A stretch of 17,915 nucleotides of DNA, taken from a virus (lineage: Duplodnaviria; Heunggongvirae; Uroviricota; Caudoviricetes). The notes beneath the pieces were generated by a model. It worked only from the letters and a program-made list of their open reading frames with translations, did no database searches and was not told the DNA's origin. Shown here in pieces: positions 1-15,496 of this stretch. Numbering within the stretch: the first letter of the stretch is position 1; every line of letters begins with the position of its first letter. Where the stretch lies: the IMG/VR virus record IMGVR_UViG_2703718843_000008, one strand, 5' to 3'. The position numbers were made by a program, and so were the translations under genes.

Positions 1-411
1 ATGCCTGCCCCCGTCGTCCTGATCCTTGCGGCCGGGCGTGGAGAGCGCTTTCTCGCCTCCGGGGGAAATACCCATAAGTGTATCGGCTGGCGTCAGTCCC
101 CGGAGGTTGCGCCTTATCGCTGGCCATTTGAAGAAAACGGGAGAACTTTCGACCTTGCGATTGAACCGCAGATTACGACTAATGATCTGCGTCTGATGTT
201 GAGGCTGGCTCTTGCCGGCGGAGGAATAACAATTGCCACTCAGGAAACTTTCAGGCCATATATTGAAAGCGGTAAGCTTGTATCGCTGCTTGATGACTTT
301 CTTCCACAATTTCCGGGCTTCTATCTGTATTTCCCACAGCGTCGCAATATTGCACCAAAGCTCCGCGCCCTGATTGACTACGTCAAAGAATGGCGGCAGC
401 AATTGGCTTAA
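1..411 (+). CDS. yagP: LysR-family transcriptional regulator, C-terminal substrate-binding-domain fragment (probable gene remnant)
   Basis: 136-aa ORF starting at base 1. C-terminal part (TFDLAIEPQITTNDLRLMLRLALAGGGITIATQETFRPYIESGKLVSLLDDFLPQFPGFYLYFPQRR) resembles the end of a LysR substrate-binding domain. No N-terminal HTH, so probably a fragment. Size and position next to an integrase/tRNA-remnant match my recollection of yagP in E. coli K-12 (unverified). Confidence 0.55.
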   Translation: MPAPVVLILAAGRGERFLASGGNTHKCIGWRQSPEVAPYRWPFEENGRTFDLAIEPQITTNDLRLMLRLALAGGGITIATQETFRPYIESGKLVSLLDDFLPQFPGFYLYFPQRRNIAPKLRALIDYVKEWRQQLA

Positions 412-537
412 ATGTCTGCACCTGCACTGCCTGATGTCAGAACAGTATTTTGATGAATTGCCAAGGTTACAATGGCACAAATACGGCACAGGAGGAAACG
501 TGGTGTATTTAAATATGGGGTAACTCTTTGATTTTAA

Positions 538-554
538 TGGTGCCGATAATAGGA
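538..554. repeat. Distal att core: 17-bp direct repeat TGGTGCCGATAATAGGA, identical to 12161..12177 (18 bp identical if 537/12160 is included)
   Basis: Exact repeat seen at both ends of the satellite. The sequence is the reverse complement of the tRNA 3' end (TCCTATTATCGGCACCA). Confidence 0.65.
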
Positions 555-671
555 ATAAAATAAAACGATAACACACTGAAAAATATACAAAAAAGAAACA
601 CACCGTTAAGTAATGCCCCCGAAAATGCCCCCATAATAGATGCCGCAGTAAGTCGACTTGTCCCAAGGACT

Positions 672-714
672 GGTAAGTAATGTCAATAGCGGGAACAAAG
701 AGACATTACTTACC
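672..714. repeat. Perfect 13-bp inverted repeat (GGTAAGTAATGTC / GACATTACTTACC), 17-nt spacer, just downstream of the PRTase gene stop
   Basis: Seen directly. No U-tract follows on either strand, so it is not a canonical intrinsic terminator. Confidence 0.4.
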
Positions 715-734
715 GAGAATGGAATCCATTTAGG

Positions 735-1961
735 TTATGCTGGCCAATCCCACTGCTGATAGGCAGAGAATAGGCGCGTGAGCTCAGCAGGCGCAAGAAT
801 ATCAACAATATTAGCTCTGTAGCTATGCGATTTACCTAATGGAACATTTTCGAAATGATTAGCTTGATAAGGATTAAAATCGTGAAGCTCACCTAATGTT
901 GAGATATCGGTATTAATAGTTTTAAGCCAAGAAACAAGAATTACTTTTGCCCCTGTTCTCTGTATGTAAGCTCTTGCCGATTCAAAACTATAGCCTCGCG
1001 TTGTTATATCATCTATAAGAAGTACTGTTTTACCAGGGCCTAAAGGTGGTTTTTTATAGGTAGTTCTAGGATTTCTGTGTGGCTTAGAATTAAGACAAAT
1101 TGTATTAAGTTGATTGCAATGGTCAATTGCAACTCCCTCATTTCTTGCTTTTTGAGATTTTTTGGAAGTCGTATGCCTTAAAATAAGATCTGGGATATAC
1201 GTCTTGCGAAAACATTTTCCAAATATTGAAATCGCTTCATCCATGATATTATTCCCATATCCTTGCTTATGCCCTGGATAAACACTAACATAATTAATCA
1301 TCTTATGAATGCCACTAAAATAGAGACTGGATATTAAGGCACTCGTCCAAAATTCAGGATGGCCTAATCCATGTTTAGCAGCACGAGCATCTTCAGAGTA
1401 AAGAGTATACTCTTCCTTCATGGTGCTGAAAGGAGCAAGTGCATAGAAATTAAAATCACCATCGTGAATTTCATGACACCAAAGATGCTCTCTTAAACAG
1501 AAGGTATCTATAAATCTAGCAATATCTTTAGGGGTTGAAAACTCGAAACCATAATCTGTTTTGTCTGCCCACCATGTAGCTCTTAAAAAGAGCAACTCAC
1601 CATTAACTGCTGTTTGCATGTCGTTTATCGAAGCACCAATGTACAAAGTTTCTGTACTTTCCCAACCCATCAAATCAAGGACATATTTTGTAGCATCCGC
1701 AGTTGGCTTCCCTGGAATGCTCTTATCTTTCGCTCGACAAAGATATTTAAATTCTCCCCAATGCTTTTGTAACACATCCTCTAAAGGGGTTCTTTCATCT
1801 CCGACAACCCACCCCCTGTTAGTGAATACAACAAACTCGATCTTTTTAGTTCTGAAATATCTAATTAATTTATCTACCTCTGCAAAGATTTCGCTATCGA
1901 TCTTTCCCTTAGGCACAAGAATATCTTCAACACTAAGAATCACACCCTTAATTTTGCTCAT
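735..1961 (-). CDS. Two-domain protein: N-terminal HAD-like domain with non-canonical motif I, C-terminal type I phosphoribosyltransferase (PRTase) domain; candidate defense effector
   Basis: 408-aa ORF, ATG preceded by AAGGAAGA. C-terminal PRPP-binding signature GKTVLLIDDITTRGYS. N-terminal HAD-like motifs (FVVFTNRGW; GKP; IGASINDMQTA) but the usual DxD nucleophile position reads SVEDIL. AT-rich. Confidence 0.85.
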   Translation of the reverse strand: MSKIKGVILSVEDILVPKGKIDSEIFAEVDKLIRYFRTKKIEFVVFTNRGWVVGDERTPLEDVLQKHWGEFKYLCRAKDKSIPGKPTADATKYVLDLMGWESTETLYIGASINDMQTAVNGELLFLRATWWADKTDYGFEFSTPKDIARFIDTFCLREHLWCHEIHDGDFNFYALAPFSTMKEEYTLYSEDARAAKHGLGHPEFWTSALISSLYFSGIHKMINYVSVYPGHKQGYGNNIMDEAISIFGKCFRKTYIPDLILRHTTSKKSQKARNEGVAIDHCNQLNTICLNSKPHRNPRTTYKKPPLGPGKTVLLIDDITTRGYSFESARAYIQRTGAKVILVSWLKTINTDISTLGELHDFNPYQANHFENVPLGKSHSYRANIVDILAPAELTRLFSAYQQWDWPA

Positions 1962-1971
1962 TTCATCTTCC

Positions 1972-3036
1972 TTAGAGATCTAAGCTCTGCTGTATCGGCT
2001 GTGCTTTTAAATCATGATTATTATTCAAAATATAATTACTCATCTCATTCAATTCAAAAGGCATTAAAAAAGATAAAGAATTTCTATTTTCTTCAGCAAA
2101 CTTCAATTCTGGTCTACTTTCATACGTAGTAGGAAGATATGGACTCGCTATCTTTTTTGCATACTTAAAAGCATAATCAACAGTATGTGATGTTCCACTT
2201 TTAATATTCCATTCGACTGGTATTAGTGAATCACATAAAGCAGCCTGGATTCTGTTGCGCCTTACAAAATTTTCTGCGCTATATGTTTGTTCAGGTAGAT
2301 ACTCGGTAACGATAGCCCCACCATTAGAAACTATTGCTCGATATAACTCTTTAGAACCTTTCGGATACTCGACAAAAATCCCATTACCCAATACCGCAAT
2401 AGTTGGAATGCCATATCTCAGCGATTCATAATGACAACATTGATCTATTCCTGTCGCCAAACCACTGACTGTTGAAACATCTTTAGAATATAGAGAAGAA
2501 ACAATCAGTTTTACTAGAAAAATACCATCATCCGTTGGCTTTCGTGTCCCCACAATTGCAACAGATTTCTTATTAAGAAGTTCATAATTACCATGAACAA
2601 AAATCCAAAATGGCGGATCGCTTATGTTCTTTAATGATTGAGGAAATGTAGCCTGATCATAAAAGGTGAGCACAATACCATTTTTATTGAGTTCACGAGC
2701 TCTCTCCAGTCCCTTAGACCAAAGGTCTTGTTGAAATGTTTCCCAAGATATATTTTTAGGCAAGGAAACTCTTAGATATCCTGCCAAGGCATCAGCTGTA
2801 TTATCTTTTAATATATTCTTAAATCCAATTTTGGATTGATAGATTTTGCGAAGCGTCCAGTAACCAACCCCCTTTAGACAAGTTAAGGCAAGAAACGCAA
2901 TAATTTCATTTTTCCAAAACTCTCTAACTTCAGTGTAATCTTTATATTCCATTTTACGTTTGCCTTTTAGATTACAACCCGTACTCAACACAAAAAATTT
3001 AGAAAATTGTTGCCAAAAGCATATTATAAATAGCAT
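1972..3036 (-). CDS. DprA/Smf-like (SLOG superfamily) protein; candidate defense partner of the PRTase protein
   Basis: Rossmann-like DprA signature VAIVGTRKPTDDG ... SGLATGIDQCCH ... TIAVLGNG ... YP ... RRNRIQAAL. Stop codon lies 10 nt before the PRTase ATG, so the two are co-transcribed. True start may be the internal ATG at 2952 (MEYKDY...); the first 28 codons are AT-rich and include a TATAAT. Confidence 0.8.
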   Translation of the reverse strand: MLFIICFWQQFSKFFVLSTGCNLKGKRKMEYKDYTEVREFWKNEIIAFLALTCLKGVGYWTLRKIYQSKIGFKNILKDNTADALAGYLRVSLPKNISWETFQQDLWSKGLERARELNKNGIVLTFYDQATFPQSLKNISDPPFWIFVHGNYELLNKKSVAIVGTRKPTDDGIFLVKLIVSSLYSKDVSTVSGLATGIDQCCHYESLRYGIPTIAVLGNGIFVEYPKGSKELYRAIVSNGGAIVTEYLPEQTYSAENFVRRNRIQAALCDSLIPVEWNIKSGTSHTVDYAFKYAKKIASPYLPTTYESRPELKFAEENRNSLSFLMPFELNEMSNYILNNNHDLKAQPIQQSLDL

Positions 3037-3317
3037 CTTACCGCAGATTTGTGAAGCAACAACATCCCTAGGAGAAACCTTAACCTAGCGGGATAACTTA
3101 CTGACCAATCCTCAGCTAGCTCATTGAATTGCCCCCATATCGCACAGCCCCGCACGCCTGCCCGCTTCGCTTAACAGACTGGTTTTCATGCACCTCATAA
3201 ATCGTCTCAGAAGCCACCAAACAAGGGCTTTCTCGTCAAAAATGGTGCATAAGACTCATGCGTTTTCATGCGCCATAGACATGCACTCATGCGCTCTCAG
3301 GCCAGCCAGGGAAAAGG

Positions 3318-3346
3318 TGTTAAAAATCCCGGTACTCGACCGGGAT
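3318..3346 (-). terminator. Intrinsic terminator of the late (sid-psu-ogr) operon
   Basis: On the minus strand, stem AATCCCGGT / ACCGGGATT with 5-nt loop, followed by TTTTAA; about 20 nt downstream of the ogr-like stop. Confidence 0.55.
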
Positions 3347-3366
3347 TACGTGAGAGTTTTTTCTAA

Positions 3367-3639
3367 TCAGACAGGAATCTGCTGACGGCTTGACAGTTTT
3401 GACGCGGAGCCATAGCGATTGAGCGTTTGCTGTTGTTTTACCAGGGTTTGTGATTTGTCTGGTTCCTGTTCATTGCGCCGGGGTTTCATGATTATCTTAT
3501 CCACACTCTCCAGTGCCGTAAATGTGCAGGAACATTCCAGATTCTGGCACTGATACCACGAGCGTTTAACTGACGGAGCTTCATAGGCTGCTGTTCTGGC
3601 GTGTGCAACTGTACCGCATTCCGGACATTTAAGTGCCAT
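3367..3639 (-). CDS. ogr: Ogr/Delta-family zinc-finger late transcription activator
   Basis: MALKCPECGTVAHARTAAYEAPSVKRSWYQCQNLECSCTFTALESV matches the P2 Ogr / P4 Delta C-x2-C ... C-x4-C pattern. ATG at 3639 is preceded by AGGAG; the ORF-track start at 3648 is a GTG. Confidence 0.85.
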   Translation of the reverse strand: MALKCPECGTVAHARTAAYEAPSVKRSWYQCQNLECSCTFTALESVDKIIMKPRRNEQEPDKSQTLVKQQQTLNRYGSASKLSSRQQIPV

Positions 3640-3644
3640 TAATA

Positions 3645-4196
3645 TCACTCCTGTATATCGTTAATGTCATTCAGGCGTTGCTGAAAACGCAGATGTTGTG
3701 CCGGAGTGTAAGAGCCCTGGCAATCACGAATCATACTGGGGTCAGGCATCAAACCGGATTCATCCAGGATCTCACGATAATCCCCGGCAATTTCAGGCGG
3801 TGTTATTGCCAGCTGGCGAACCAGAGCACTGCGTAATATACGAAACGCAACGTCAACCCCTCCGCGTCCCTTCAGGAACGGAGCCAGTGCAGATGTCAGG
3901 GCTGCCCCATTCGCCTGCATAAAATTGCTGAGAGCGGCTTCTGTGCAGGCCTCCATCAATAAATGCTGCGAGTAAATGCATTCGCGCGCAGCACAGTTAA
4001 TTTGCCATTTCAGCACATCCAGACGTTCCCGCAGTAATTCGAGCTGTCGGGCATAATCTGCTGGTTTTTCTGTGGCAGTGAGGAGAGATGCTATCTGTTG
4101 TTCAACGGCTTTTCGGCTCTCACTATGTCCGGCCCACAGAATACGGGCATTCCGAAAACTGGTAAGTGCCTGGTCAGGTGTGCCTCGGGCCGTCAT
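3645..4196 (-). CDS. psu: Psu-like polarity suppression protein (P4 family)
   Basis: 183 aa. Segments LKWQINCAA ... FMQANGAALTSALAPFLKG ... YTPAQ resemble P4 Psu as I recall it. ATGA overlap with the upstream gene; AAGGAG RBS. Confidence 0.7.
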   Translation of the reverse strand: MTARGTPDQALTSFRNARILWAGHSESRKAVEQQIASLLTATEKPADYARQLELLRERLDVLKWQINCAARECIYSQHLLMEACTEAALSNFMQANGAALTSALAPFLKGRGGVDVAFRILRSALVRQLAITPPEIAGDYREILDESGLMPDPSMIRDCQGSYTPAQHLRFQQRLNDINDIQE

Positions 4197-4936
4197 ACTG
4201 CTTTCTCCTTCTCAGCAAGTTCCTGACGAACCTTTATTTTATGCATAGCTGCCGGAGAGAGTTGATTACTGAAATCCAGACGCGCCGCATAATCCGGGGC
4301 AACTCCCGCCAGTTTAAACACCGGGTCCTGTTCAGGCATCGCATCGTTAGCCAGAGCCGGTCTGGTGATATGTTTATGAATAAAGTCTTTCAGCACTGTG
4401 TCCGGGTCATTAACTGAATTCACCACACCCACAACGGCACTGGCTTCCCGGCCCATTGTGGATTTAAGCAGGCTCAGCGTCTGAATAAGCGCTTTTCCAT
4501 GCGACTGCATAAAATCCTCCCAGATTTGTTTTGCGCGAATATCCACAAGAATGTTATGCGCGTGGATATACTTTCCGGCTAATTCCGCAGCTTTCTGCGG
4601 CAAAAGTGCATTTTCGCTTTCCTGAGCCGCCAGCAGCTCATCAAAATCCTCAAGCGTTTCTCGTCCCAGCGCAATTTCCGTGCGCAGTTTTTTCATTTCC
4701 TTTGAGACCACGCCCTGACTTTCACGAAACAGCGTGCGCCACTCCTCATTCAGTGTATTCGTCGTGGATTCCATTTCAGCGCGGCGCTGGCGGATTGTCG
4801 CAATATTATCCGCTGCCGCTTTCTGCTGACGACGTGCTTCAAGCCATGCGTTTCTGGCTGTGTTCATGGTTTCCAGTGCCCGCTGCGTTACAGCCGGAAA
4901 AGTGGAAAGGTTGTTATTCACTGCGGTGTTGTTCAT
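4193..4936 (-). CDS. sid: Sid-like capsid size determination (external scaffold) protein, putative
   Basis: 247-aa helical, Gln/Glu/Ala-rich protein directly upstream of psu and ogr. Assignment rests on size and position, not a specific motif. Confidence 0.45.
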   Translation of the reverse strand: MNNTAVNNNLSTFPAVTQRALETMNTARNAWLEARRQQKAAADNIATIRQRRAEMESTTNTLNEEWRTLFRESQGVVSKEMKKLRTEIALGRETLEDFDELLAAQESENALLPQKAAELAGKYIHAHNILVDIRAKQIWEDFMQSHGKALIQTLSLLKSTMGREASAVVGVVNSVNDPDTVLKDFIHKHITRPALANDAMPEQDPVFKLAGVAPDYAARLDFSNQLSPAAMHKIKVRQELAEKEKAV

Positions 4937-5114
4937 GACTTCTCCTGTCGGGTTGGTTCGTTACGTCAATTGTGTCGTGGCTGACACAAGCACACTATCG
5001 GTGCTCAGTGTGTGGTGGCTGGCACAACGGGCGCTTGCGGTTATTCAGACGTGGCTATGAAAGCCAGCCAGATAAAAATGCCCACTGTTTCAGTCTGCTT
5101 TATGTCCCTGATGC

Positions 5115-5311
5115 GGTGGAACAGGTGAAACATGTGTTACAGCTTTGTTTTATAAATCATTTATATACACTGCACCGGTGGAACATCGCGGGTAACAAGG
5201 TGGAACAGCGGATTGGCTGGCGTTACATCTGTTCCACCTCACTATTTCAGAAGGTGGAACAGGTTCAGCCCCTGTAAAATACGGTTGTTCCACCTGTTTC
5301 ACCTGTTACCC
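5115..5311. repeat. Iteron cluster with AT-rich tract; putative satellite replication origin / cis replication region
   Basis: At least 7 copies of GGTGGAACA / TGTTCCACC in both orientations (5115, 5177, 5199, 5230, 5253, 5286), plus GGTGAAACA / TGTTTCACC variants and an AT-rich stretch at about 5137..5170, immediately downstream of the primase-helicase gene. Confidence 0.6.
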
Positions 5312-5337
5312 TTAATAAATAAGACTCACGCAAAGCC

Positions 5338-8010
5338 TTAACCCGGCACCTCGCTGTTGAAGACATAGAGCCTGCGGGGATTCATCTCTGGCGGGCGAAT
5401 GGTTGTCTGGAGTTTGCCATCAGTGGAGGGCAGCAGGTATCCACGATCTGCGCACAGACGCGCCACCTTGCGCGGGTCAAATCCCCTGCAGATTTCTTTC
5501 CAGCCGGACGGCATGACATAAAACGTAGTGACAGCTTCCGTGCCCTGCGCGGTACTGCCTTTCTCCACCCTGCGCCAGCCCACCATATTGGCGGGACGGT
5601 TGCGCTCGTCATACCAGTCTGCAAAGCGGCTGTACTGATTCGCGGTAAAGAAACTGCGAACCTGCTCCAGTGCGGCGATATCTTCCTGATTGGCGGTGTG
5701 CCCGCGCTCTTTCAGCCATGCGTTCAGGCAGACGCGGGTTGCCCGCAATGCTTCACCCTCAGGCCAGCCGGTGATACCCAGACGGGTTGCCAGTTCACCT
5801 GCCATCGCCACCAGTGCAAAGCGGTTCACAGCCCGGCCCACCTGATTGCCTGCATCTTTCGGAGTCAGGGCGGCAGCATATTCCTTCATCAGCGATTTTG
5901 CCTGTGCCGTTAGTCCGTTAAGATCAGCGGTCAGTGCTTTCAGCCACTCCCGGAACGGCGAACCGTAGTAGCAGGACGTGGCCCATTCAAGATGCTCTGC
6001 CAGAGCCTTGCCGCTGTCGAAGCCGTGCAGCTCCTCAAAAACGCCAAACTTCCCGGAATCGCTGGGGATCTGGATCATCCTGACTTCCATCCCGGCAAAA
6101 GTACGCTCACCGGCCTTTGCCGCATGTTCGGTCAGAGATAACTCGCCAGTTGAAAAGAACAACAGGCGCCACTGCTTACGGGTACGCAGTTCACCGTCCG
6201 TACCGGCACGACTCTTGCCCTGACCGTTTGCCAGCATGTAGGCGATATTGCCTGCCTCGCGTCCGTCAACTTCCCGGATCTCATCAAGCATCATGGCGGC
6301 ATCGTTGCGGCGGCTGGCACATCCCTCCAGCGCGTTGCCGGTGGCCCGCCATGTCTGCCAGTAGTCAGGCCCGCCGCAGACGGAGGTTGCCGCTTTCATG
6401 GTGGTGGTCTTACCGTCTGTCGATTCCCCTTTGAGGTGGTAGCCGCCGCCGTCCATACCAACCAGCCGTAACAGTGGTGCAGCAAAGGCCAGGCTGACAG
6501 CAAATGCCACGCGGGAGTTGCCGGTACAGTAGCGGGATACGTTCTCCCGCCATTCCTCTGTTGTGCCCGACACGCGGAAATCACGCCCCTGCACGGAAGT
6601 GGTCTGGAGAATGACACCCTCTGCACCTTCACCGCTGACCTCATCCTGCAGGACGTAAACCTGACCATGCCAGCCAGTACGGCTGACGCAGGTCACGCGA
6701 CGTTCCGGTTTACACAGTGAGATATATTCCATCAGGCGTGCGCGTGCCTCACCGGTGGTGCTGATATAAGACAGCCCGTTAACAAGCAGTACCCGGCGCA
6801 GTTCCTCACCACTGCCGCTCAGCATTTCCATCGGCATCGCCCAGCGGCGACGCTCACCCCACGTATCTTCCCATTCCAGCAGTCGTCCGAAGTTACCGCC
6901 ATCGGCATCGCAGGTGATTGCCGTCACGCGCAGCGGGCTGCATATTTTGACGTTCTGGATCTCCGTCTCACCGTTGCGCTGTACCTGCTTTTCATACCAG
7001 AGATATTCCTGGGTAAGACGGAACCCGTGCGGCAGTTGCGTGCGGCCTTCCCCGCACAGTACCAGACCGTTGCGAAAGGCTTCACGGGCACGGGTAATAC
7101 CGTGCTCCCGATGAAAGTCATTCCAGTCAGCCTTAATCTCTCCTGGTGGCAGCGTCATCCAGCCGCCAACAGCTTTTGCCGCCCGTTCAGCAAAGGCTCT
7201 GCCGGGATTCTCCCCCCCGTCCTGAAAATCGTTATCACCGGCGATGATAATTTTTACCTCAGGCCAGCGTGCCCGCAGCGACTGCGCCACATTGGGCAGG
7301 TTGCCCGCAGATATGGCAGCCACTACGCATCCGGCAGTGAGCTGGCTTACCGTCAGCGCCGTAGCGTAACCTTCGGTAATCACCACCTGTACCGGTGGTT
7401 CAGACGGTAACGGGCTGAGCGACACAAACGCGCCTTTCATCGTGCTGCCGGGCAGTATGCTTTTTTCACCCGTCGGGGCGATAAGCTGTGCACCGGTCAC
7501 GGCTCCGGTGTTGGTCGTGAGTGGTAACAGCAGGGAACCGGCAGGAAAATCCTTACCGCTGATATGCTGCACGCTTCCGGTCAGAGAGGCCGGGTATCCG
7601 GCGAACCCTTTTCCTGCCAGATAGGCACTTTCTCCCGTGTGGCTCTCTTTCATCAGCGTCGCCACGGTAAGGCTCATGTCGCGTTTAGGGGCTTTTTGTC
7701 TGGCAGGCTTAACAGGCAGTTCCTGCACATCCGGCACATTAAGCACCTGCGCCACCTGCTGCGCAGCCTTTCTGACGTTGTAGCCGGTTACGAGCTTAAC
7801 CAGATCCAGACCGTCACCATTGCCACACTGGCTGCAGATCCACGTCCCGCGCCCGTCAAGGTCATCGAGGCGAAAACGATCCTTGCCCCCACATTTCGGG
7901 CAGGGACCGTGCCTGCCGTTTTCAGGTACATCAATACGCAGCATATGCAGAATAACGGGCCATTTCCCCCGCGCGGCGGCTGAAATCTGCGTAACCGTCT
8001 GTATTGTCAT
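5338..8010 (-). CDS. P4 alpha-like replicative primase-helicase
   Basis: 890 aa. N-terminal zinc-binding motif CPKCGG ... CSQCG; Toprim-like VVITEGYATA ... IIIAGDND; P-loop GESTDGKTTT. ATGA overlap with the upstream ORF. Confidence 0.9.
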   Translation of the reverse strand: MTIQTVTQISAAARGKWPVILHMLRIDVPENGRHGPCPKCGGKDRFRLDDLDGRGTWICSQCGNGDGLDLVKLVTGYNVRKAAQQVAQVLNVPDVQELPVKPARQKAPKRDMSLTVATLMKESHTGESAYLAGKGFAGYPASLTGSVQHISGKDFPAGSLLLPLTTNTGAVTGAQLIAPTGEKSILPGSTMKGAFVSLSPLPSEPPVQVVITEGYATALTVSQLTAGCVVAAISAGNLPNVAQSLRARWPEVKIIIAGDNDFQDGGENPGRAFAERAAKAVGGWMTLPPGEIKADWNDFHREHGITRAREAFRNGLVLCGEGRTQLPHGFRLTQEYLWYEKQVQRNGETEIQNVKICSPLRVTAITCDADGGNFGRLLEWEDTWGERRRWAMPMEMLSGSGEELRRVLLVNGLSYISTTGEARARLMEYISLCKPERRVTCVSRTGWHGQVYVLQDEVSGEGAEGVILQTTSVQGRDFRVSGTTEEWRENVSRYCTGNSRVAFAVSLAFAAPLLRLVGMDGGGYHLKGESTDGKTTTMKAATSVCGGPDYWQTWRATGNALEGCASRRNDAAMMLDEIREVDGREAGNIAYMLANGQGKSRAGTDGELRTRKQWRLLFFSTGELSLTEHAAKAGERTFAGMEVRMIQIPSDSGKFGVFEELHGFDSGKALAEHLEWATSCYYGSPFREWLKALTADLNGLTAQAKSLMKEYAAALTPKDAGNQVGRAVNRFALVAMAGELATRLGITGWPEGEALRATRVCLNAWLKERGHTANQEDIAALEQVRSFFTANQYSRFADWYDERNRPANMVGWRRVEKGSTAQGTEAVTTFYVMPSGWKEICRGFDPRKVARLCADRGYLLPSTDGKLQTTIRPPEMNPRRLYVFNSEVPG

Positions 8011-8390
8011 ACTTCCCCCTGATACAACGTCACACCAGTACTGCAGAAGTCATCAAAGGTCGCCGGAAGCGTGCGGTACATCTCCGCCATTACTTCACAG
8101 CCGCGCGCGGTCAGTACCGGCGGCGCGGTCAGCAGTGACGGCTCCAGCATGTCAGTCAGCAGTGCCAGCGCGGCAGCGGCGCCCTGTGCTTCGCCGTACT
8201 CGTTAATCAGTGCGCACTCGATATGCAGCGCAATGGCCATTTCAATACGCTCCACCGTCAGGCTGTGCGGACCATACTGATCACTGCCAGTTTCGTTCAG
8301 CATTTTCTGCCGCCATGCTGAAGCAATAGCCCGCCGGTAAAGCGCGGTTGTCATTTCTGCCGGGAAAATGGAAACCTGCGGCTGGTTCAT
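8007..8390 (-). CDS. Hypothetical satellite early-operon protein
   Basis: 127-aa ORF with strong RBS (GAAGGAGGTG); translationally coupled on both sides by ATGA overlaps. Confidence 0.55.
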   Translation of the reverse strand: MNQPQVSIFPAEMTTALYRRAIASAWRQKMLNETGSDQYGPHSLTVERIEMAIALHIECALINEYGEAQGAAAALALLTDMLEPSLLTAPPVLTARGCEVMAEMYRTLPATFDDFCSTGVTLYQGEV

Positions 8391-8671
8391 CTGGCACCTC
8401 CTTCAATCAGTGCACAGCTGTGCGCAATATCCGTCAAATCTGCCCGCAGGTACTCCATCAGCGCGGCGACACCATGCGCACAGCCAGCGTCCAGTGCTCC
8501 GGCCTGAGACGAGTATTCAGAAAAGAGAAGCTGGAGCATGTCGCAGGCATTTCTTGCGCGGGTCAGCTTTCCGAAACTGTCCTCTGACAACCCATAGGCA
8601 AAAGCACCGGTATTGTGTTTTTCAGGCAAAGTGTGGCCCTGAGCACCGTTGTGCCCGTTTGAAATATTCAT
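8387..8671 (-). CDS. Hypothetical satellite early-operon protein
   Basis: 94-aa ORF, ATG start with ACGGAG RBS, ATGA overlap with the downstream gene. Confidence 0.55.
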   Translation of the reverse strand: MNISNGHNGAQGHTLPEKHNTGAFAYGLSEDSFGKLTRARNACDMLQLLFSEYSSQAGALDAGCAHGVAALMEYLRADLTDIAHSCALIEGGAR

Positions 8672-8702
8672 CGTGGATTACTCCGTTTTCAGCGGTATTT
8701 TG

Positions 8703-9062
8703 TCAGAGAAACTTTGAATAGTGACCGTCGTCAGGCTCAGCAGAACGCCGTATGCTACGCTCCCGCCAGCGGATAAATAGCACAGACGGATGCAGTGTCA
8801 GCGGGCCGGAACCACTACCGCCTGCAGGAGCTGGTGCAGGCTTAAAGAGCGGTACATCAAACAGGCGCGTATACCGCTGTTCAAACCATGCCAGAGGGCA
8901 GGAAGAAAGCTGGTTGTCGCTGTCATGACGTATCAGCACTTCACAGCTGAATTCAGGATTAACCAGCGCCACAGAGGGCGAGGCTTCAATTAATCGGATA
9001 ATCGTGACCGTCCAGCCACGTTCATGCTGCCAGCGTTCGCCGGGGTGCGGATAATTACGCAT
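8703..9062 (-). CDS. Hypothetical satellite early-operon protein
   Basis: ORF-track start at 9092 is a TTG; the ATG at 9062 (MRNYPHPGERW...) is preceded by GGAGGTG and is the likelier start. Confidence 0.5.
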   Translation of the reverse strand: MRNYPHPGERWQHERGWTVTIIRLIEASPSVALVNPEFSCEVLIRHDSDNQLSSCPLAWFEQRYTRLFDVPLFKPAPAPAGGSGSGPLTLHPSVLFIRWRERSIRRSAEPDDGHYSKFL

Positions 9063-9231
9063 GTTCACCTCCGCAGGGAATGCGCCCGGCAAAGCTCAGT
9101 ACATAATCCGGGGCAAGTCTGCGCCGCGCTGACCGCTCGTTATCTGCGGTGATCCTTAACATCACAGGACGGGCATTGCGTTGACTGCGGTTGATCGCCG
9201 CAAATAACCAGGTACACTTCTGTTTAGCCAT
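9055..9231 (-). CDS. Small hypothetical protein (58 aa), first gene of the leftward operon
   Basis: ATG with AAGAGGT RBS; MAKQKCTWLFAAINRSQRNARPVMLRITADNERSARRRLAPDYVLSFAGRIPCGGEHA. Below the 60-aa ORF-track cutoff. Stop overlaps the next gene's start. Confidence 0.4.
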   Translation of the reverse strand: MAKQKCTWLFAAINRSQRNARPVMLRITADNERSARRRLAPDYVLSFAGRIPCGGEHA

Positions 9232-9320
9232 CTTCGTTACCTCTTATAACGGTTGGTTAAATGCCCGATTTGTGTTCCCGCACAATCGGGCATTGCTTTT
9301 ACAAGCGAACTATACTTACA

Positions 9321-9365
9321 ATGGTAATTACCATGTAGTCATCATATTCTAGGGTAATTACCATG
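9321..9365. promoter_or_regulatory. Two palindromic operator-like sites in the divergent promoter region
   Basis: ATGGTAATTACCAT (9321..9334, perfect 14-bp palindrome) and GGTAATTACC (9353..9362). The second overlaps the ATG of the ribbon-helix-helix gene. Confidence 0.5.
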
Positions 9366-9536
9366 TCAACACCACAAGAGAAACGTTCCCCACCATTCCA
9401 AATGCGTCTTACCGACGATTTTAGGTTGCAACTCGAAAAAGAAATGCGCAAAGATGGAGATAGCGCGTTGGCAACTTGGATTAAAAGAATTTTACGTAAA
9501 GAACTACAATCACGCGGGATTGACCCTAAAGGTTAA
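9363..9536 (+). CDS. Arc/Mnt-like ribbon-helix-helix repressor (57 aa)
   Basis: PPFQMRLTDDFRLQLEKEMRKDG-DSALATWIKRILRKEL follows the beta-strand/helix/helix pattern of Arc-type repressors. Divergent from the early operon. Not in the ORF track (under 60 aa). Confidence 0.55.
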   Translation: MSTPQEKRSPPFQMRLTDDFRLQLEKEMRKDGDSALATWIKRILRKELQSRGIDPKG

Positions 9537-9568
9537 TCAGTTAAATATTACTAACTATCAATTAAGGC

Positions 9569-9859
9569 TTAGGGAGTAGGTGATAATCTATTCCCTTTAT
9601 TAATTGCTCTTGCCTTATTTCTCATCCCCTCAAACTGTTGACCTGAGTTTTCTTCAAACCCATCTCGCCACTTATAATAATCAGCAGCGCGCCATCGGGA
9701 CATCCGACCTATTTTTATAGGTTTTGGAAAGCGATTCAGAGAAATCAATCGATAAATCCATTTGTCACTTAATAAACAATCGGAAGTAATAAACTTCATA
9801 TCGATCAGAGAATCCATTGAAGGTCGTTGCAAAGTAGTATTATCATGTTTAGATAACAT
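9569..9859 (-). CDS. AlpA/Vis-family HTH protein (excisionase or regulator)
   Basis: 96 aa; IYRLISLNRFPKPIKIGRMSRWRAADYYKW matches the AlpA-type pattern (FP-P-I-G ... W ... W). GGAG RBS. Confidence 0.75.
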   Translation of the reverse strand: MLSKHDNTTLQRPSMDSLIDMKFITSDCLLSDKWIYRLISLNRFPKPIKIGRMSRWRAADYYKWRDGFEENSGQQFEGMRNKARAINKGNRLSPTP

Positions 9860-9984
9860 TCATCATTCTCCGTTTATCTAAGTCTATTGGCTTCAACACG
9901 GAAAATTAAAACATAGGTTATAAATGAGAAAAATGTGACTAATGAAAAAAATCCAAAATCATTAGTCACAATAATTGTTAACAT

Positions 9985-10809
9985 TTAGTTAAACTTAATG
10001 TTTTTCATGCAACTACGTAGCAAGCTAACAACAGTATCATAGCTCAAAGGTGGTTCTCCGGTCTTAGGCCAGAACTCACTGGCATGTTGAAAAAGATAAT
10101 CAGCTATCGCTGCTGGACTCTCTCTTCTTAGCCTCATATCACGATGATAGAGCGAAATAATAGCCATGAGTATTTCAGTTCGAGGAACAGCATGTTTTTG
10201 TTTTTGCGCCTCAGATTGTGATTTATATTTATTGGCGTTTTTTATCCGTTTTTGTTCGCATAAGACTATATCAATGAATTTTTGAATCTGTACCTTTGTA
10301 ATCCACAAAACCTCAAAAAGATAATAATTTTCTTTTTCATCATAATTTACATAAAGAATTACCTTACAATTTATATTAGGCGTACCCGCCAGTAGAAAAT
10401 GAATAGGCCAGGAATCCGGTTGCCCCTCATGCTTAACTAACAGATCTTTATATTCATAATCAACAGCCCATAAACCGGATATAAAGCATCGAATAAAACC
10501 ATTTTTATCAATTAAATTATTTTCATCAGGGATTCTTATAGAGCTTAAGTCTGACAACATAATATTGCCATTTCTATCTCGTGGTAAATATTTCAGATTA
10601 GATAAGAACTCATCCATTTGACCATCAATCTTCAAACCACATGAAACATCATACTCATCATCATGGAATTCCATGCATAGCTCTACATCTCGTTCTCTGG
10701 CAAACCAGAGTATATCCTTTTCACTACAACCAATTTTTTCTGAAGCTTCATCCAACTGGTAGTAATCTCTGAGCAGAGAATCAGTATTATTAATTTTTAA
10801 AATATTCAT
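9985..10809 (-). CDS. Hypothetical protein, AT-rich orphan cargo gene translationally coupled to the integrase
   Basis: 274-aa ORF whose ATG overlaps the integrase stop (ATGA). Marked AT-rich codon usage; no motif I can recognise. Confidence 0.65.
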   Translation of the reverse strand: MNILKINNTDSLLRDYYQLDEASEKIGCSEKDILWFARERDVELCMEFHDDEYDVSCGLKIDGQMDEFLSNLKYLPRDRNGNIMLSDLSSIRIPDENNLIDKNGFIRCFISGLWAVDYEYKDLLVKHEGQPDSWPIHFLLAGTPNINCKVILYVNYDEKENYYLFEVLWITKVQIQKFIDIVLCEQKRIKNANKYKSQSEAQKQKHAVPRTEILMAIISLYHRDMRLRRESPAAIADYLFQHASEFWPKTGEPPLSYDTVVSLLRSCMKNIKFN

Positions 10810-11996
10810 TTATGAGTACCAATTAGCTCAGATAAATAATTAGCATACCATTGCATCATTTCTCTTCTCCCTTCGAGATATTGGGCATGGTTATAAATTC
10901 CACGAATAGAGTTTTTGTCCGAATGAGCAAGCTGGGTTTCAATCCAAGCGCTGTTAAATCCTTTCTCATGTAGAATTGTACTCATCGTATGCCTGAAACC
11001 ATGTCCCGTAACACGCCCTGCATATCCAATACGTTTAAACACCTGATTGATGCTTGCTTCACTCATAAATTTGCTAGGATCGTTGCGTCCAGGGAACATC
11101 AGCGGGTAGTTCCCAGTTAGTTCTTTCAAACTTTTGAGATGGGATAATGCTTGTTTTGGTAACGGGACAATATGGCTCCTACGCATTTTCATACGTTCTT
11201 TTGGGATCTCCCACACCGCATTATCAAAATCCACCTCTCGCCACTCACCTGCTCGTAGTTCTCCAGTTCGTAGACCTGTCAGGATAAGTAAATGCGCCCC
11301 CAACAATACAATTGGACTTCCTGAATAAGAATTAAGGGCATTAAAGAACTCCGGTAGTTCGTTGGCTTTGAGGAATGGATAGTGGACTGCTTCATGTCCT
11401 TGCATCGCACTGGCAAGATCCGGTGCCGGATTGTAGATTGCCCTACCCGTTACGATGGCATAGCGAAAAACTTCACCGCATCGCTGACGGACTTTCTTCG
11501 CTTTCTCCATAGCGCCTCGAGCTTCTATCAACCTCAGAACTTCAAGCAGTTCAAGGGGCTGAATATCAGCTATAGGTCTGTGCCCAATATGCGGAAAAAT
11601 GTCTTTCTCAAATGCCTCAATGATGTCGGAAGCATAGCCCTCAGACCATTTGGATGATTTCATTTTGTGCCACTCTAACGCCACTTCTCTGAATGGGTTA
11701 AGTGTCTCAATCGCTGCGTTTAAAGCCTGCTTTTTGGCTTTTTTGACTTCGCCGGGATCTTCACCTGCTGCGAGTAGTTTCTTTGCGTCTTCTCGTTTTT
11801 GTCTGGCATCAGCAAGTGTGACTGTTGGATAAACACCAAAGGACAATCGTTTCTCTTTACCAGCAAAACGGTATTTCATACGCCAGTAACGCGAGCCATT
11901 AGGTTCGACCTGAAGGTATAGGCCACCTCCATCAAACAGCTTATAGCTCTTCTCTTTTCCTTTCGCAGCTTCAACCTTGCGGGCATTCAGCATCAT
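10806..11996 (-). CDS. int: P4-type tyrosine integrase
   Basis: N-terminus KSYKLFDGGGLYLQVEPNGSRYWRMKYRFAGKEKRLSFGVYP is typical of P4-family integrases; C-terminal catalytic residues HGFRHT ... Y. ORF-track start at 12065 is a TTG; ATG at 11996 or 11993 (MMLNARKVE) fits the family N-terminus better. Confidence 0.9.
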   Translation of the reverse strand: MMLNARKVEAAKGKEKSYKLFDGGGLYLQVEPNGSRYWRMKYRFAGKEKRLSFGVYPTVTLADARQKREDAKKLLAAGEDPGEVKKAKKQALNAAIETLNPFREVALEWHKMKSSKWSEGYASDIIEAFEKDIFPHIGHRPIADIQPLELLEVLRLIEARGAMEKAKKVRQRCGEVFRYAIVTGRAIYNPAPDLASAMQGHEAVHYPFLKANELPEFFNALNSYSGSPIVLLGAHLLILTGLRTGELRAGEWREVDFDNAVWEIPKERMKMRRSHIVPLPKQALSHLKSLKELTGNYPLMFPGRNDPSKFMSEASINQVFKRIGYAGRVTGHGFRHTMSTILHEKGFNSAWIETQLAHSDKNSIRGIYNHAQYLEGRREMMQWYANYLSELIGTHK

Positions 11997-12160
11997 TGGG
12001 GGCACATTTCCTAGACCGAACAGAACATGCCCCTGATTGTGCCCCCAACCGCGTGTTGATTTCAAGAGACAAGGGTTGACCTCAAACGTATGAAAACAAC
12101 GTAATATATATGTTTTTAAATGATTTTGTTGATGTGGGTTGACTTGGGAAAACTAGGTGA

Positions 12161-12209
12161 TGGTGCCGATAATAGGAGTCGAACCTACGACCTTCGCATT
12201 ACGAATGCG
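12161..12209 (-). pseudogene. ptwF: Partial tRNA-Thr(CGU) gene, 3' 49 nt only (thrW-like att remnant)
   Basis: Minus strand reads CGCATTCGTAATGCGAAGGTCGTAGGTTCGACTCCTATTATCGGCACCA: anticodon stem-loop with CGT anticodon, T-arm (GGTTCGACTCC), acceptor 3' strand and CCA. No D-arm or 5' acceptor strand upstream. The symbol is my recollection of the K-12 name. Confidence 0.75.
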
Positions 12210-12318
12210 ATGTTAATGCATTTTTAACTACTTGAGCAATCAATCAAAACAACATACTTTATATTATAAAACACCAAGTTATAGCAATAAACCCGTTGAT
12301 TGAAATTAACAAAAGTTG

Positions 12319-13719
12319 ATGTTTATTCCCTCCATTTACTTACACCAGCAGTTACATTATTGTAAGACAGCAATTCTCAACTGGAGCCGAAAAATGGCGC
12401 TTTCAAGACAAAAATTTACCTTCGAAAGACTTCGCAGATTCACCTTACCGGAAGGGAAAAAACAAACTTTTCTTTGGGATGCAGATGTAACAACCCTGGC
12501 ATGCCGAGCAACTAGCGGAGCAAAAGCCTTTGTATTCCAAAGCGTATATGCGGGGAAAACCCTTCGCATGACTATTGGCAACATTAACGACTGGAAGATT
12601 GATGATGCGAGAGCCGAGGCAAGACGGTTACAAACATTGATCGATACAGGGATAGATCCACGAATTGCTAAGGCTGTAAAAATCGCAGAAGCAGAATCCC
12701 TGCAGGCAGAATCACGTAAAACAAAAGTGACTTTCTCCGTCGCCTGGGAAGACTATCTTCAAGAATTGAGAACCGGTATCAGTGCAAAAACTAAACGCCC
12801 ATATTCTACTCGATACATTGCCGATCACATTAACTTGTCCAGTCGTGGAGGCGAAAGTAAAAAAAGAGGCCAAGGCCCGACTTCGGCTGGACCATTGGCT
12901 AGTTTGCTCAACCTGCCGTTATCGGAGCTAACCCCAGATTACATAGCAGCGTGGCTGAGTACAGAAAGGCAAAATAGACCTACCGTCACTGCTCACGCTT
13001 ATCGCCTACTACGTGCTTTCATCAAATGGAGTAATTATCAGAAAAAATATCAAGGGATCATTCCTGGCGATCTGGCACAAGATTACAACGTAAGAAAAAT
13101 GGTTCCCGTGTCAGCGAGTAAAGCTGATGATTGCCTGCAAAAGGAACAACTAAAAAGCTGGTTTAGTGCCGTGCGTAGCCTCAATAATCCTATTGCATCG
13201 GCCTATCTCCAAGTACTTTTGCTCACTGGTGCTCGGCGTGAAGAAATTGCGTCGCTTCGCTGGTCAGACGTAGATTTCAAATGGTCAAGCATGCGAATTA
13301 AAGACAAGATCGAAGGTGAACGTATCATCCCTCTCACTCCTTATGTTTCTGAATTGTTAAATGTACTAGCGCAATCCCCAAATTCTGACGTAAATAAGGA
13401 GGGTTGGGTTTTCAGAAGTAACAGTAAAAGTGGCAAAATTATTGAGCCGCGTTCAGCGCACAACAGAGCGTTAGTGCTGGCTGAGTTACCACATATCAGC
13501 CTTCACGGTTTACGTCGTAGTTTTGGTACTTTGGCCGAGTGGGTTGAAGTTCCCACTGGTATTGTTGCTCAAATTATGGGACACAAACCCAGCGCTCTTG
13601 CCGAAAAACACTATCGCCGTCGTCCGTTAGATCTGTTACGAAAATGGCACGAGAAAATTGAGACATGGATCTTAAATGAAGCAGGTATTACCATAAAAAA
13701 CAACGTTGATATGCGTTGA
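12319..13719 (+). CDS. intF: Tyrosine integrase of the neighbouring cryptic prophage
   Basis: Tyrosine recombinase motifs LLLTGARREE ... HGLRRSFGT ... GHKPSALAEKHY. First ATG at 12319 gives 466 aa (ORF-track start 12316 is a TTG). Confidence 0.85.
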   Translation: MFIPSIYLHQQLHYCKTAILNWSRKMALSRQKFTFERLRRFTLPEGKKQTFLWDADVTTLACRATSGAKAFVFQSVYAGKTLRMTIGNINDWKIDDARAEARRLQTLIDTGIDPRIAKAVKIAEAESLQAESRKTKVTFSVAWEDYLQELRTGISAKTKRPYSTRYIADHINLSSRGGESKKRGQGPTSAGPLASLLNLPLSELTPDYIAAWLSTERQNRPTVTAHAYRLLRAFIKWSNYQKKYQGIIPGDLAQDYNVRKMVPVSASKADDCLQKEQLKSWFSAVRSLNNPIASAYLQVLLLTGARREEIASLRWSDVDFKWSSMRIKDKIEGERIIPLTPYVSELLNVLAQSPNSDVNKEGWVFRSNSKSGKIIEPRSAHNRALVLAELPHISLHGLRRSFGTLAEWVEVPTGIVAQIMGHKPSALAEKHYRRRPLDLLRKWHEKIETWILNEAGITIKNNVDMR

Positions 13720-13835
13720 TTCCATTAAAAATCAACATATTACAAAATATCATCAACTATTGATCAAGATAGATTTTCATGTATCGTAATACACAGTTTA
13801 GTCAATGATACAGCAACTACACAGGAGATAAGCCA

Positions 13836-14497: not shown

Positions 14498-14615
14498 TAA
14501 ATTACAGATTTAATTTTATTGATTTATAGCGATGTTGCCCCGAGAAAAATGGGGCAACACTGAGAAATTTCAGATAGTAGTTTTATATTGAGATAACAAA
14601 GAGGTTTCCTTAAAA

Positions 14616-15470: not shown

Positions 15471-15496
15471 GAGGTAACAAAGAAGGACAAACAATT

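Follow-up and report, generated by a model that had tools for sequence, protein, structure and literature searches.

The P2 and P4 hotspots contain anti-phage systems that combine a DprA-like protein with a PRTase and that defend against T7 and lambda (PMC9122126). PRTase-type toxins that have DprA-like antitoxin partners, or that act as abortive-infection effectors, have been discussed as PsyrTA/RqlHI and as retron-associated PRTase effectors (PMC9122126, PMC11961720, PMC12961424). ShosTA, a two-gene type IV toxin–antitoxin system directed against phage, has been described down to crystal structures: ShosT of E. coli APEC O1 (424 amino acids) is available in apo form (8ZVB), with PRPP-Mg (8ZVC) and with phosphate (8ZVD), and in the entries 9W2P and 9W2Q, with domain borders placed at residues 1-164 and, for the PRTase, 165-424 (PMC11961720, PMC12961424). 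The PRTase of this protein is monomeric and non-canonical, with a nine-residue PPi loop (PMC12961424).

Substitutions in the PRPP site of the PRTase (D331A/D332A and R285E) abolish ShosT toxicity, whereas R56A, the sole mutant of the N-terminal domain to have been assayed, lowers it only marginally (PMC11961720, PMC12961424). R56 is one of the phosphate ligands of the crystallized protein, together with N53, K54 and K92, and N53 makes its contact through the backbone (PMC11961720). Pu et al. found that purified ShosT consumes PPi independently of Mg2+ and saw orthophosphate in the site of the N-terminal domain after a PPi soak; they take the domain for a genuine pyrophosphatase whose activity draws the reaction of the PRTase onward (PMC11961720).

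The shosTA locus and its carrier

The window, that is, the whole stretch of 17,915 nucleotides analysed here, carries a toxin gene of this kind on its minus strand at 735..1961 (408 amino acids; stop codon at 735-737). The protein was recognized by the PADLOC model PDLC03012 (E 1.5e-92, residues 4-407), and it matched the PADLOC models for ShosT only and not those for PsyrT. The PDB ShosT chains 8zvb, 8zvc, 8zvd, 9w2p and 9w2q were matched with E-values of about 4e-87 (3.9e-87 for 8zvb), at 39.9% identity to the crystallized APEC O1 protein, while a search against NCBIfam returned HAD and PRTase matches that were all below threshold. An AF2 model of the full-length protein (pLDDT 89.9) superimposed on 8zvb, 8zvc and 8zvd with TM-scores of 0.84-0.89 over ~421 columns (Foldseek). 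The gene is thus a copy of shosT, and the combination of a HAD-like domain and a PRTase, which the first-pass annotation had taken for an unusual architecture, is the known and defining layout of the ShosT family.

Translation of 735-1961 on the plus strand gave only stops. The ATG at 1961 is the earliest start following the upstream stop, and it is used by RefSeq and shared by all homologues, which excludes a shorter start lying beyond motif I; the unusual motif I described below therefore does not result from a misplaced start codon.

Directly upstream, separated by a 10-nucleotide gap, lies shosA (1972..2952, minus strand), which encodes a DprA-like antitoxin of 326 amino acids from the RefSeq start, in a frame that is open to 3036. 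A Shine-Dalgarno-like sequence, AAGGAAG, precedes the ATG of shosT, and shosT is probably translated immediately downstream of shosA. The product of shosA matched Pfam DNA_processg_A (3.8e-58), the PADLOC ShosA model (3.3e-90) and the PDB ShosA chains 9vzo and 8zva (~2e-71), and also the PADLOC PsyrA model (1.8e-24). Neutralization of toxicity by ShosA and protection from phage have been demonstrated for homologues of this pair only (PMC11961720, PMC12961424, PMC9122126). A scan of 400-3400 returned 8 promoter-like sites, with 8.5 expected, and no terminators.

The pair lies within a P4-like satellite prophage (537..12177) whose two ends are marked by att repeats, direct copies of the 18-bp sequence ATGGTGCCGATAATAGGA (537-554 and 12160-12177). 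The satellite encodes Ogr/Delta, Psu, a Sid-like protein, a Toprim/DUF927 primase, AlpA and an integrase, and the same element is found at tRNA-Thr in other E. coli. A tRNA scan of the window found no intact tRNA; a partial copy of tRNA-Thr was found only by comparison with another genome. GC content is 35-37% in shosTA versus 50-60% in the P4 core. These features indicate that shosTA is AT-rich distal cargo, occupying the hotspot on the psu/delta side of a P4-like satellite that has integrated at tRNA-Thr, a carrier in which it differs from APEC O1 shosT. PADLOC and Pfam scans of the other open reading frames of the window identified no additional defence genes.

Two domains of ShosT

The N-terminal domain (1506..1961, minus strand; residues 1 to ~152) has a capless HAD fold. 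Pfam PF00702 matched it right at the gathering cut-off (E 1.1e-5, 26.4 bits), and a profile of the domain found the ShosT crystal chains as best matches (1e-38), followed by HAD phosphatases (2hi0, 3.9e-6). The Rossmannoid alpha/beta core, with motif I ending strand 1 near the N-terminus, is that of a HAD protein, and from these profile matches the HAD assignment is well beyond chance. Together with the superposition on the ShosT structures, this upholds the N-terminal HAD-like Rossmannoid domain proposed in the first-pass annotation, although not its extent of ~130 residues. The strings quoted there as motifs are all present (LSVEDIL, residues 9-15; FVVFTNRGW, 43-51; GKP, 84-86; IGASINDMQTA, 108-118); motifs II and III are recognizable, but motif IV is degenerate as well as motif I.

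Motif I reads GVILSVEDILV (residues 6-16; 1914..1946, minus strand). In an alignment to distant relatives that retain DxDGT (clade B, below), Ser10 (1932-1934) falls in the column of the Asp nucleophile and Glu12 in the Asp+2 column, and an independent profile–profile alignment with hhalign placed both residues likewise (probability 99.94%, E 1e-36), so that the Ser/Glu in place of Asp/Asp noted earlier is real. Motif II, FVVFTNR (residues 43-49; 1815..1835, minus strand), provides T47 and N48 of the phosphate-binding loop, N48 aligning with N53 of crystal ShosT. Motif III, PGKP (residues 83-86; 1704..1715, minus strand), contains Lys85, the counterpart of K92. In motif IV, YIGASINDMQTAVNG (residues 107-121; 1599..1643, minus strand), Ala110 replaces the first Asp and Asp114 is retained.

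Side by side with the window protein, APEC O1 ShosT has the same HAD-fold or 'hydrolase' domain joined to a PRTase, a DprA-like ShosA upstream, all of the PRPP-binding residues, Ser at the nucleophile position, Asn and Lys in the phosphate site and the Asp of motif IV. The two differ at the Asp+2 position (Glu in the window protein, Ala in APEC O1 ShosT), at motif IV position 110 (Ala versus Arg) and in the phosphate site, where R56 and K54 of the crystal protein are replaced by W51 and R49; Trp is also found at the former position in most of the window's clade.

Of the residues expected in a competent HAD enzyme, the motif II Thr/Ser and the motif III Lys are accounted for by T47/N48 and K85, whereas the DxD of motif I and the Mg2+-binding acidic pair of motif IV (GDxxxD or DD) are absent. 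Compared with HAD-type (type III) pyrophosphatases, the domain is without the Asp nucleophile, the Mg2+ ligands and the cap domain. Because the catalytic Asp residues are missing (Ser10, Glu12 and Ala110 stand in their places), canonical HAD chemistry is ruled out: judging from its residues, the domain cannot proceed through an aspartyl-phosphate.

The remainder of the protein, residues 153-408 (738..1505, minus strand), corresponds to residues 165-424 of crystal ShosT and, like them, is probably a non-canonical PRTase. Pfam Pribosyltran (PF00156) detected only residues 289-341, around the PRPP loop, and weakly (E 0.009; 15.8 bits, below the cut-off of 26.3), which accounts for the ~200-residue linker of unknown fold that had been proposed to lie between the domains. 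Canonical type I PRTases have a dimeric core and a PPi loop of four residues. In both the AF2 model and the crystal homologue a single, enlarged PRTase runs continuously from about residue 153, leaving no room for a linker. The PRPP-site residues H240, K280, R285, D331 and D332 of APEC O1 ShosT are all conserved, as H231, K268, R273, D317 and D318; the last two lie in the PRPP loop VLLIDDITTRG (residues 312-323; 993..1028, minus strand) and are 100% conserved in the window's clade. The C-terminal PRTase of the earlier annotation is borne out by these correspondences.

Conservation of the HAD motifs in two clades

Among 42 close homologues of the window protein (53-100% identity), N48 and D114 are invariant (42/42 each), Ser10 is found in 41/42 and Glu12 in 39/42, and K85 is found in 39/42, the other three having Arg. 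Ser10, Glu12 and Asp13 are each at least 90% conserved within this subfamily, where mean column identity is 63%.

A wider set of 88 full-length representatives (50% clustering) gave a different picture for motif I. In the window's own clade (clade A, n = 42) the nucleophile position is occupied by Gly in 22 proteins, Ser in 14, Ala in three, Asn in two and Cys in one, and never by Asp. Motif IV position 110 is Asn, Ala, Ser or Gly, again with Asp in none of the 42. Positions 12 (R/D/E/G/T and others) and 13 (N/D/G) vary, as does the position of T47 (Ser in 15, Ala in 12, Thr in 9). The Ser/Glu pair is thus conserved in the close subfamily but not in the wider clade.

The distant sister clade (clade B, n = 44), in contrast, has Asp10 in all 44 members and Asp110 in 42; the full DxD is present in 14, and the other 30 have the Asp nucleophile without Asp+2 (DxS in 23). 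A neighbour-joining tree placed 41 of the 42 non-Asp proteins in a single clade holding no Asp-type member, and a single protein (P0233) would mark one independent loss outside the window's clade. Clade B proteins, which are uncharacterized and come from metagenomes and genomes (P0205, P0210, P0180 and P0249 among them), have 380-410 amino acids, the same domain order and the same PRPP loop as the window protein, are recognized by the PADLOC ShosT models, and have a DprA-like gene directly in front of their own in 4/4 informative contigs. The contig of P0264 is too short to include the gene upstream. They are only 21-28% identical to the window protein and differ from it in having the full DxDGT (14 proteins) or DxS (23) and the GD of motif IV (42/44); at the N-terminus they align with the first part of Pfam Hydrolase_3/Hydrolase_6, which opens at motif I. 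These proteins may be real phosphatases or pyrophosphatases.

Other elements of the site are kept on both sides of this division. N48 is 90% and D114 100% conserved in both clades, K85 is Lys in 87% of clade A (otherwise Arg) and 97% of clade B, and N48, K85, G109 and D114 all reach at least 87% in each. Mean pairwise identity of the HAD-like domain is equal in the two clades (31.1% versus 31.0%); the N-terminal domain is therefore still under constraint. The apparent clade-wide loss of Asp, set against its retention in a DprA-linked sister clade, is the new addition of this analysis.

Possible roles of the HAD-fold domain

Taken together, these data very probably describe the ShosT of a P4-satellite shosTA pair, with a HAD-fold domain that is a non-catalytic, phosphate- or PPi-binding accessory to a PRTase toxin. 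ShosT consists of two Rossmann-type domains with no intervening linker. By homology, residues ~153-408 would form a monomeric PRTase that binds PRPP through H231, K268, R273 and D317/D318 and that either passes the phosphoribosyl group to an acceptor or consumes it there, a reaction that would perturb purine metabolism and bring about DNA damage and filamentation; ShosA would counteract these effects by binding ssDNA and recruiting RecA, leaving the toxin itself untouched. Residues 1-152 are a capless HAD fold minus its catalytic Asps that has retained the phosphoryl-binding elements, namely the T47/N48 loop, K85 and D114. Most likely, this domain gives modest help to the PRTase as a phosphate- or PPi-binding accessory. 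The first-pass annotation had offered a binding-only domain or altered chemistry, which was fair wording, and had suggested that the HAD-like module could define the effector chemistry. The latter does not agree with the requirement of homologue toxicity for the PRPP site of the PRTase and the marginal effect of R56A (PMC11961720, PMC12961424); the N-terminal domain would neither determine the effector chemistry nor be essential for toxicity. The HAD-like domain, the non-canonical motif I and the C-terminal PRTase of that annotation thus stand, and the linker, the unusual architecture and the effector role do not.

Some observations run against an accessory role. If the measured PPi activity resides in the N-terminal domain, 'binding-only' fails, and the conservation of Ser10, Glu12 and Asp13 could reflect a subfamily-specific function.

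A further proposal, which we put forward tentatively and hold to be somewhat doubtful, is that the HAD-like domain of E. coli-type ShosT is a pseudo-phosphatase whose catalytic apparatus was eroded stepwise, from the full DxD plus GD of 14 of the 88 representatives, by way of the 30 that have the Asp nucleophile without Asp+2, to the Asp-less window clade, with the phosphoryl-binding Asn, Lys and Asp retained at every step and with selection for ligand binding rather than for hydrolysis. If this is true, the domain senses or retains PPi, Pi, PRPP or a nucleotide, or gates the PRTase; the Mg-independent pyrophosphatase activity is incidental or derived from a contaminant; and a true HAD phosphatase is coupled to a PRTase in the distant clade only. 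The top non-ShosT Foldseek match of the full-length model (3EWI, E 1.6e-5), the C-terminal HAD-like (KDO8P-phosphatase-like) domain of murine CMP-sialic acid synthetase, offers no more than a parallel for a HAD module that has no catalytic role. It too is a capless HAD fold joined to a nucleotide-metabolizing enzyme, although identity is 12% and neither the organism nor the enzyme it is joined to is related. The 3EWI domain is an oligomerization platform and is not known to have detectable phosphatase activity.

The HAD-type pyrophosphatase BT2127 of Bacteroides thetaiotaomicron (PDB 3QU2 and others) is the enzyme with which ShosT has been compared. BT2127 has 221 residues, an Asp11 nucleophile, Asp13 and a cap domain; the window domain, 16% identical to it, has 152 residues and none of these features. 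BT2127 is Mg-dependent. Structures of its D11N, D13A and D13N mutants were among the Foldseek matches of the AF2 model.

The resemblance to BT2127 was adduced by Pu et al. (2025), for whom the N-terminal domain is a real inorganic pyrophosphatase, working by a mechanism that is non-canonical and needs no metal, which clears the PPi coming from the PRTase and thereby drives phosphoribosyl transfer forward; the consumption of PPi by APEC O1 ShosT in vitro without Mg2+ and the orthophosphate that occupied the canonical HAD phosphate site once PPi had been soaked in speak for it (PMC11961720), and the conserved N48, K85 and D114 would fit. We consider this explanation rather unlikely. Catalysis of the BT2127 type needs the Asp nucleophile, Asp+2 and Mg2+ ligands, which are absent from the window and crystal proteins alike, the latter having S9, A11 and R117 at the catalytic positions. 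Gly, the commonest residue at the nucleophile position in the window's clade (22/42), is unable to act as a nucleophile. R56, the only phosphate-binding side chain assayed, has given way to Trp in the window protein (W51) and in most of its clade, and its removal reduces toxicity only marginally (PMC11961720). The absence of the catalytic residues is passed over in the ShosT papers: the word 'nucleophile' has 0 occurrences, and HAD is absent from the NAR paper.

The allele in the window has lost one alanine in frame (DARAAAKHG to DARAAKHG), through a 3-nucleotide deletion in (AGC)3 at about position 1377, directly before the invariant Lys196. The deletion is unique to this allele among the homologues compared, being absent from all of them, 10 near-identical E. 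coli genomes and all 41 aligned homologues included, and not found in APEC O1 ShosT. A deletion beside K196 could alter activity. That the window holds a decaying copy encoding an attenuated or inactive toxin, its PRTase weakened by the loss of Ala, would agree with the uniqueness of the deletion and the 100% conservation of the adjoining K196 in clade A, and the high toxicity of ShosT makes attenuating mutations plausible. It is nevertheless improbable, with the reading frame and shosA intact, all PRPP-site residues present and the fold still confidently predicted by AF2; the change shortens a poly-Ala helix segment, which is often tolerated.

A switched chemistry, in which Ser10 (with Glu12 and Asp13) serves as a new nucleophile towards a substrate, phosphorylated or other, for example the nucleotide product of the PRTase, so that the module co-determines the toxic product, is very improbable: these residues are well conserved among close homologues and the crystallized ShosT likewise has Ser there and Asp at +3, but the subfamily conservation is not above background, no more than 14 of the 42 clade A proteins have Ser, against 22 with Gly and three with Ala, positions 12 and 13 are variable, no substitute catalytic residue is conserved family-wide, and R56A, the one mutation of the site assayed, is not decisive for toxicity (PMC11961720).

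The locus itself adds little, as another P4-satellite copy of a defence system that has already been crystallized and mutated. A loose end is that the N-terminal domain of ShosT has been named a pyrophosphatase despite lacking every HAD catalytic residue. The Asp-less clade and its Asp-retaining, DprA-linked sister constitute a simple natural experiment for telling an enzyme from a binding module, and the answer bears on how such PRTase toxins are driven or regulated.

Identity and domain architecture of ShosT

The 1227-nt shosT frame (735-1961) is open on the minus strand only and encodes 408 residues. The ATG at 1961, preceded by AAGGAAG and lying 10 nt past the upstream gene's stop codon, is the earliest possible start in this frame; it is also the start chosen by RefSeq in near-identical E. 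coli genomes, and it aligned with the N-termini of all homologues. The PADLOC ShosT model matched residues 4-407 (E = 1.5e-92), while the upstream ORF matched both PADLOC ShosA (3.3e-90) and Pfam DNA_processg_A (3.8e-58). Five PDB entries for ShosT (8ZVB, 8ZVC, 8ZVD, 9W2P and 9W2Q) aligned end to end with the window protein (E about 4e-87), and two for ShosA matched its neighbour (about 2e-71). With the crystallised ShosT of E. coli APEC O1 it shares 39.9% sequence identity (N-terminal domain 37.6%, PRTase domain 41.2%). AlphaFold2, run with 42 homologues, gave a model (mean pLDDT 89.9, pTM 0.90) that agreed with the three structures of Pu et al. at TM 0.84-0.89. The architecture, described as unusual in the first-pass annotation, is that of the known, crystallised ShosT.

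The Pfam match to the PRTase is weak (E = 0.009) and confined to the surroundings of the PRPP loop (residues 289-341), which is why about 200 residues had been left unassigned and taken for a linker of unknown fold. No such linker is present: in the model and the crystal homologue, residues ~153-408 form one enlarged PRTase domain, and all PRPP-site residues (H231, K268, R273 and D317/D318) are kept. Published work describes ShosT as a two-domain protein whose PRTase binds PRPP-Mg, with toxicity lost in D331A/D332A and in R285E and lowered by H240E and K280E; none of the purines tested bound. When expressed, ShosT disturbs purine metabolism and leads to filamentation and to duplications of DNA; the binding partners of ShosA are ssDNA and RecA, not ShosT (Pu et al., Nat Commun 2025, PMC11961720; Yang et al., NAR 2026, PMC12961424).

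The window shosT is also unique in having lost 3 nt from an (AGC)3 repeat (window ~1377, codons 193-195), an in-frame deletion that changes DARAAAKHG to DARAAKHG one residue ahead of the invariant Lys196. Three Ala occupy this site in the closest homologues checked directly (P0001-P0012) and in another E. coli genome (L001), other near-identical E. coli matches are 3 nt longer than the window allele, and a residue is present at the deleted position in all aligned homologues and in the crystal protein. Its effect on the toxin may be neutral or attenuating. The shosA frame (1972-3036, minus strand) allows a 354-residue product; RefSeq starts it at Met29 (2952), giving 326 residues, and the alignment with crystallised ShosA begins only at residue 40. 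The hydrophobic 28-residue N-terminal extension is probably not translated.

The P4-like satellite and its surroundings

DprA+PRTase pairs occur in P2/P4 defence hotspots and protect against T7 and lambda (Rousset et al., PMC9122126). In the window, the shosTA pair has a GC content of 35-37% and the core of the neighbouring element 50-60%; the element encodes Ogr/Delta, Psu, a Sid-like protein, a Toprim/DUF927 primase, an Icd-like protein, AlpA and a tyrosine integrase. Direct repeats of 18 bp, ATGGTGCCGATAATAGGA, flank it at 537-554 and 12160-12177, and with these as borders the element is a P4-like satellite of ~11.6 kb. In other E. coli the satellite sits at tRNA-Thr beside proA; the window's shosTA variant is rare, found in 10 of 5426 complete E. 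coli genomes at ≥80% coverage. The integrase-end repeat falls within a 49-nt fragment from the 3' end of tRNA-Thr (12162-12209), and ARAGORN found no intact tRNA, so the repeat is an att site and not a complete tRNA. The arrangement differs in at least one other E. coli (genome L001), where the P4-like element adjoins intact tRNA-Thr.

Several neighbouring features were also recorded. The plus-strand ORF at 1-411 is the C-terminal remnant of a LysR-family regulator, annotated by RefSeq as a pseudogene without its N-terminus (73-411); its first ~25 residues belong to no real protein, and the remnant, beside paoD, indicates the chromosomal flank of the satellite's att site. A 247-residue protein in the Sid position (4193-4936, minus strand) matches the Pfam Psu family in its C-terminal half (E = 1.6e-9), which suggests that the satellite's capsid-size and polarity-suppression proteins are paralogues. 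Between integrase and alpA lies a 274-residue ORF (9985-10809, minus strand) with no Pfam or PADLOC match and a hypothetical RefSeq annotation; its composition (35% GC) suggests that the P4-like element carries foreign cargo here as well, a second piece besides shosTA. Directly past the partial tRNA-Thr, a second integrative element follows in tandem (12316-17915), with a 467-residue tyrosine integrase in opposite orientation, a resolvase/HTH-like protein (15497-16195), a YagK/YfjJ-family protein (16467-17093) and several AT-rich ORFs lacking Pfam or PADLOC matches.

HAD catalytic residues across the family

The HAD-like motifs assigned in the first-pass annotation were read correctly: LSVEDIL (residues 9-15), FVVFTNRGW (43-51), GKP (84-86) and IGASINDMQTA (108-118) are all present. 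In fold comparisons, the N-terminal domain scored 19.2 against ShosT 8ZVB, 16.4 against BT2127 and 14-18 against about 60 HAD-superfamily enzymes (phosphoglycolate phosphatases, beta-phosphoglucomutases and haloacid dehalogenases), and its sequence profile directly matched HAD phosphatases in the PDB (2hi0, 3.9e-6). The domain has no cap: motif I and the core helix that follows are only ~10 residues apart, and matches in the ShosT family skip the cap portion of the Pfam HAD_2 profile.

The Ser/Glu substitution at the nucleophile motif proved to be conserved among 42 close homologues (53-100% identity), with S10 in 41, E12 in 39 and D13 in 38; N48 and D114 are invariant, K85 is kept in 39 (Arg in three), and position 110 is Ala or Ser. 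A family profile searched against 1.84 billion cluster representatives gave 786 matches (E ≤ 1e-3), 108 of them with E ≤ 1e-30. Alignment of 88 near-full-length representatives revealed two groups, clade A (42, including the window protein; the others 30-56% identical to it) and clade B (44; 21-28%). The nucleophile position is Asp in 44/44 clade-B proteins and never in clade A (Gly 22, Ser 14, Ala 3, Asn 2, Cys 1). Asp+2 is variable in clade A and is Asp in 14, Ser in 23 and another residue in 7 of clade B; these 14, which include canonical DxDGT, are the only ones of the 88 to keep the full DxD. Motif IV position 110 is Asp in 42/44 of clade B, as against Asn 26, Ala 5, Ser 5, Gly 3 and other 3 in clade A. 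The residues of crystallised ShosT (S9, A11, R117) are of the clade-A type, and P0135, the representative that looks closest to it, falls in clade A.

In a neighbour-joining tree the non-Asp proteins formed a single clade, with 41 of 42 inside and no Asp-type members; P0233, within clade B, lost its aspartates independently. An independent profile-profile comparison of the N-terminal domains of the two clades (probability 99.94%, E = 1e-36) placed S10 on the clade-B Asp and "Gns..D" on "GDs..D", and clade-B N-termini align with the beginning of Pfam Hydrolase_3/Hydrolase_6, profiles that start at motif I. Clade-B genes directly follow a DprA-like gene in 4/4 informative contigs and their products match PADLOC ShosT models; therefore these too are ShosTA-type systems. 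At four such loci (L002, L004, L005 and L006) the ShosT-like proteins carry DxDGT or DxS, plus GD, and the preceding DprA-like genes are larger (329-445 aa), some with a weak LDcluster4 match; the L004 pair lies near a ThsB-TIR gene. The gene for P0121, a clade-A protein whose nucleophile position is Gly, is likewise preceded by a DprA-like gene. On its 41-kb contig (locus L009, CP039233.1) this shosTA pair has an MqsRA toxin-antitoxin pair on one side and phage HNH/terminase/portal genes on the other, and is thus cargo of a phage-like element, not of a P4 satellite.

Role of the HAD-like domain

Since the ancestral state of the HAD superfamily has the canonical motifs, the starting point would be a HAD-PRTase fusion whose catalytic site was intact; in the simplest history, a single loss at the base of the window's clade removed the nucleophile and one Mg ligand. 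The N-terminal domain is still under constraint, since its mean pairwise identity is nearly equal in the two clades (31.1% in A, 31.0% in B), and N48, K85, G109, D114 and N120, the residues with which HAD enzymes bind the phosphoryl group, are ≥87% conserved in clade A. In 8ZVD, a phosphate occupies this phosphoryl site (PMC11961720). No replacement nucleophile conserved across clade A was found, the commonest residue being Gly; we therefore regard aspartyl-phosphate chemistry as excluded and Ser-based chemistry as unlikely.

We consider a phosphate- or PPi-binding accessory to the PRTase the most probable role. The marginal drop in toxicity with R56A (PMC11961720) is compatible with it; R56 itself is not conserved, being W51 in the window protein and Trp in most of its close subfamily. 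The main counter-evidence comes from Pu et al., who likened the domain to the HAD-superfamily pyrophosphatase BT2127 and observed PPi consumption in vitro without a need for Mg (PMC11961720). A genuine pyrophosphatase, as that activity implies, is a minority possibility: Mg-independence fits the absent metal ligands, but the activity lacks a mechanistic basis. Neither structural paper discusses the HAD catalytic motifs ('nucleophile' does not occur in Pu et al., PMC11961720, nor 'HAD' in Yang et al., PMC12961424).

The first-pass interpretation thus stands for its observation and motifs and falls for the linker, the unusual architecture and the suggestion that the HAD-like module may define the effector chemistry: this domain does not appear to determine the toxin's chemistry. 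What the analysis adds is solely that the family as a whole divides into members with intact HAD motifs and members with degenerate ones, which sharpens the question of what the N-terminal domain does.
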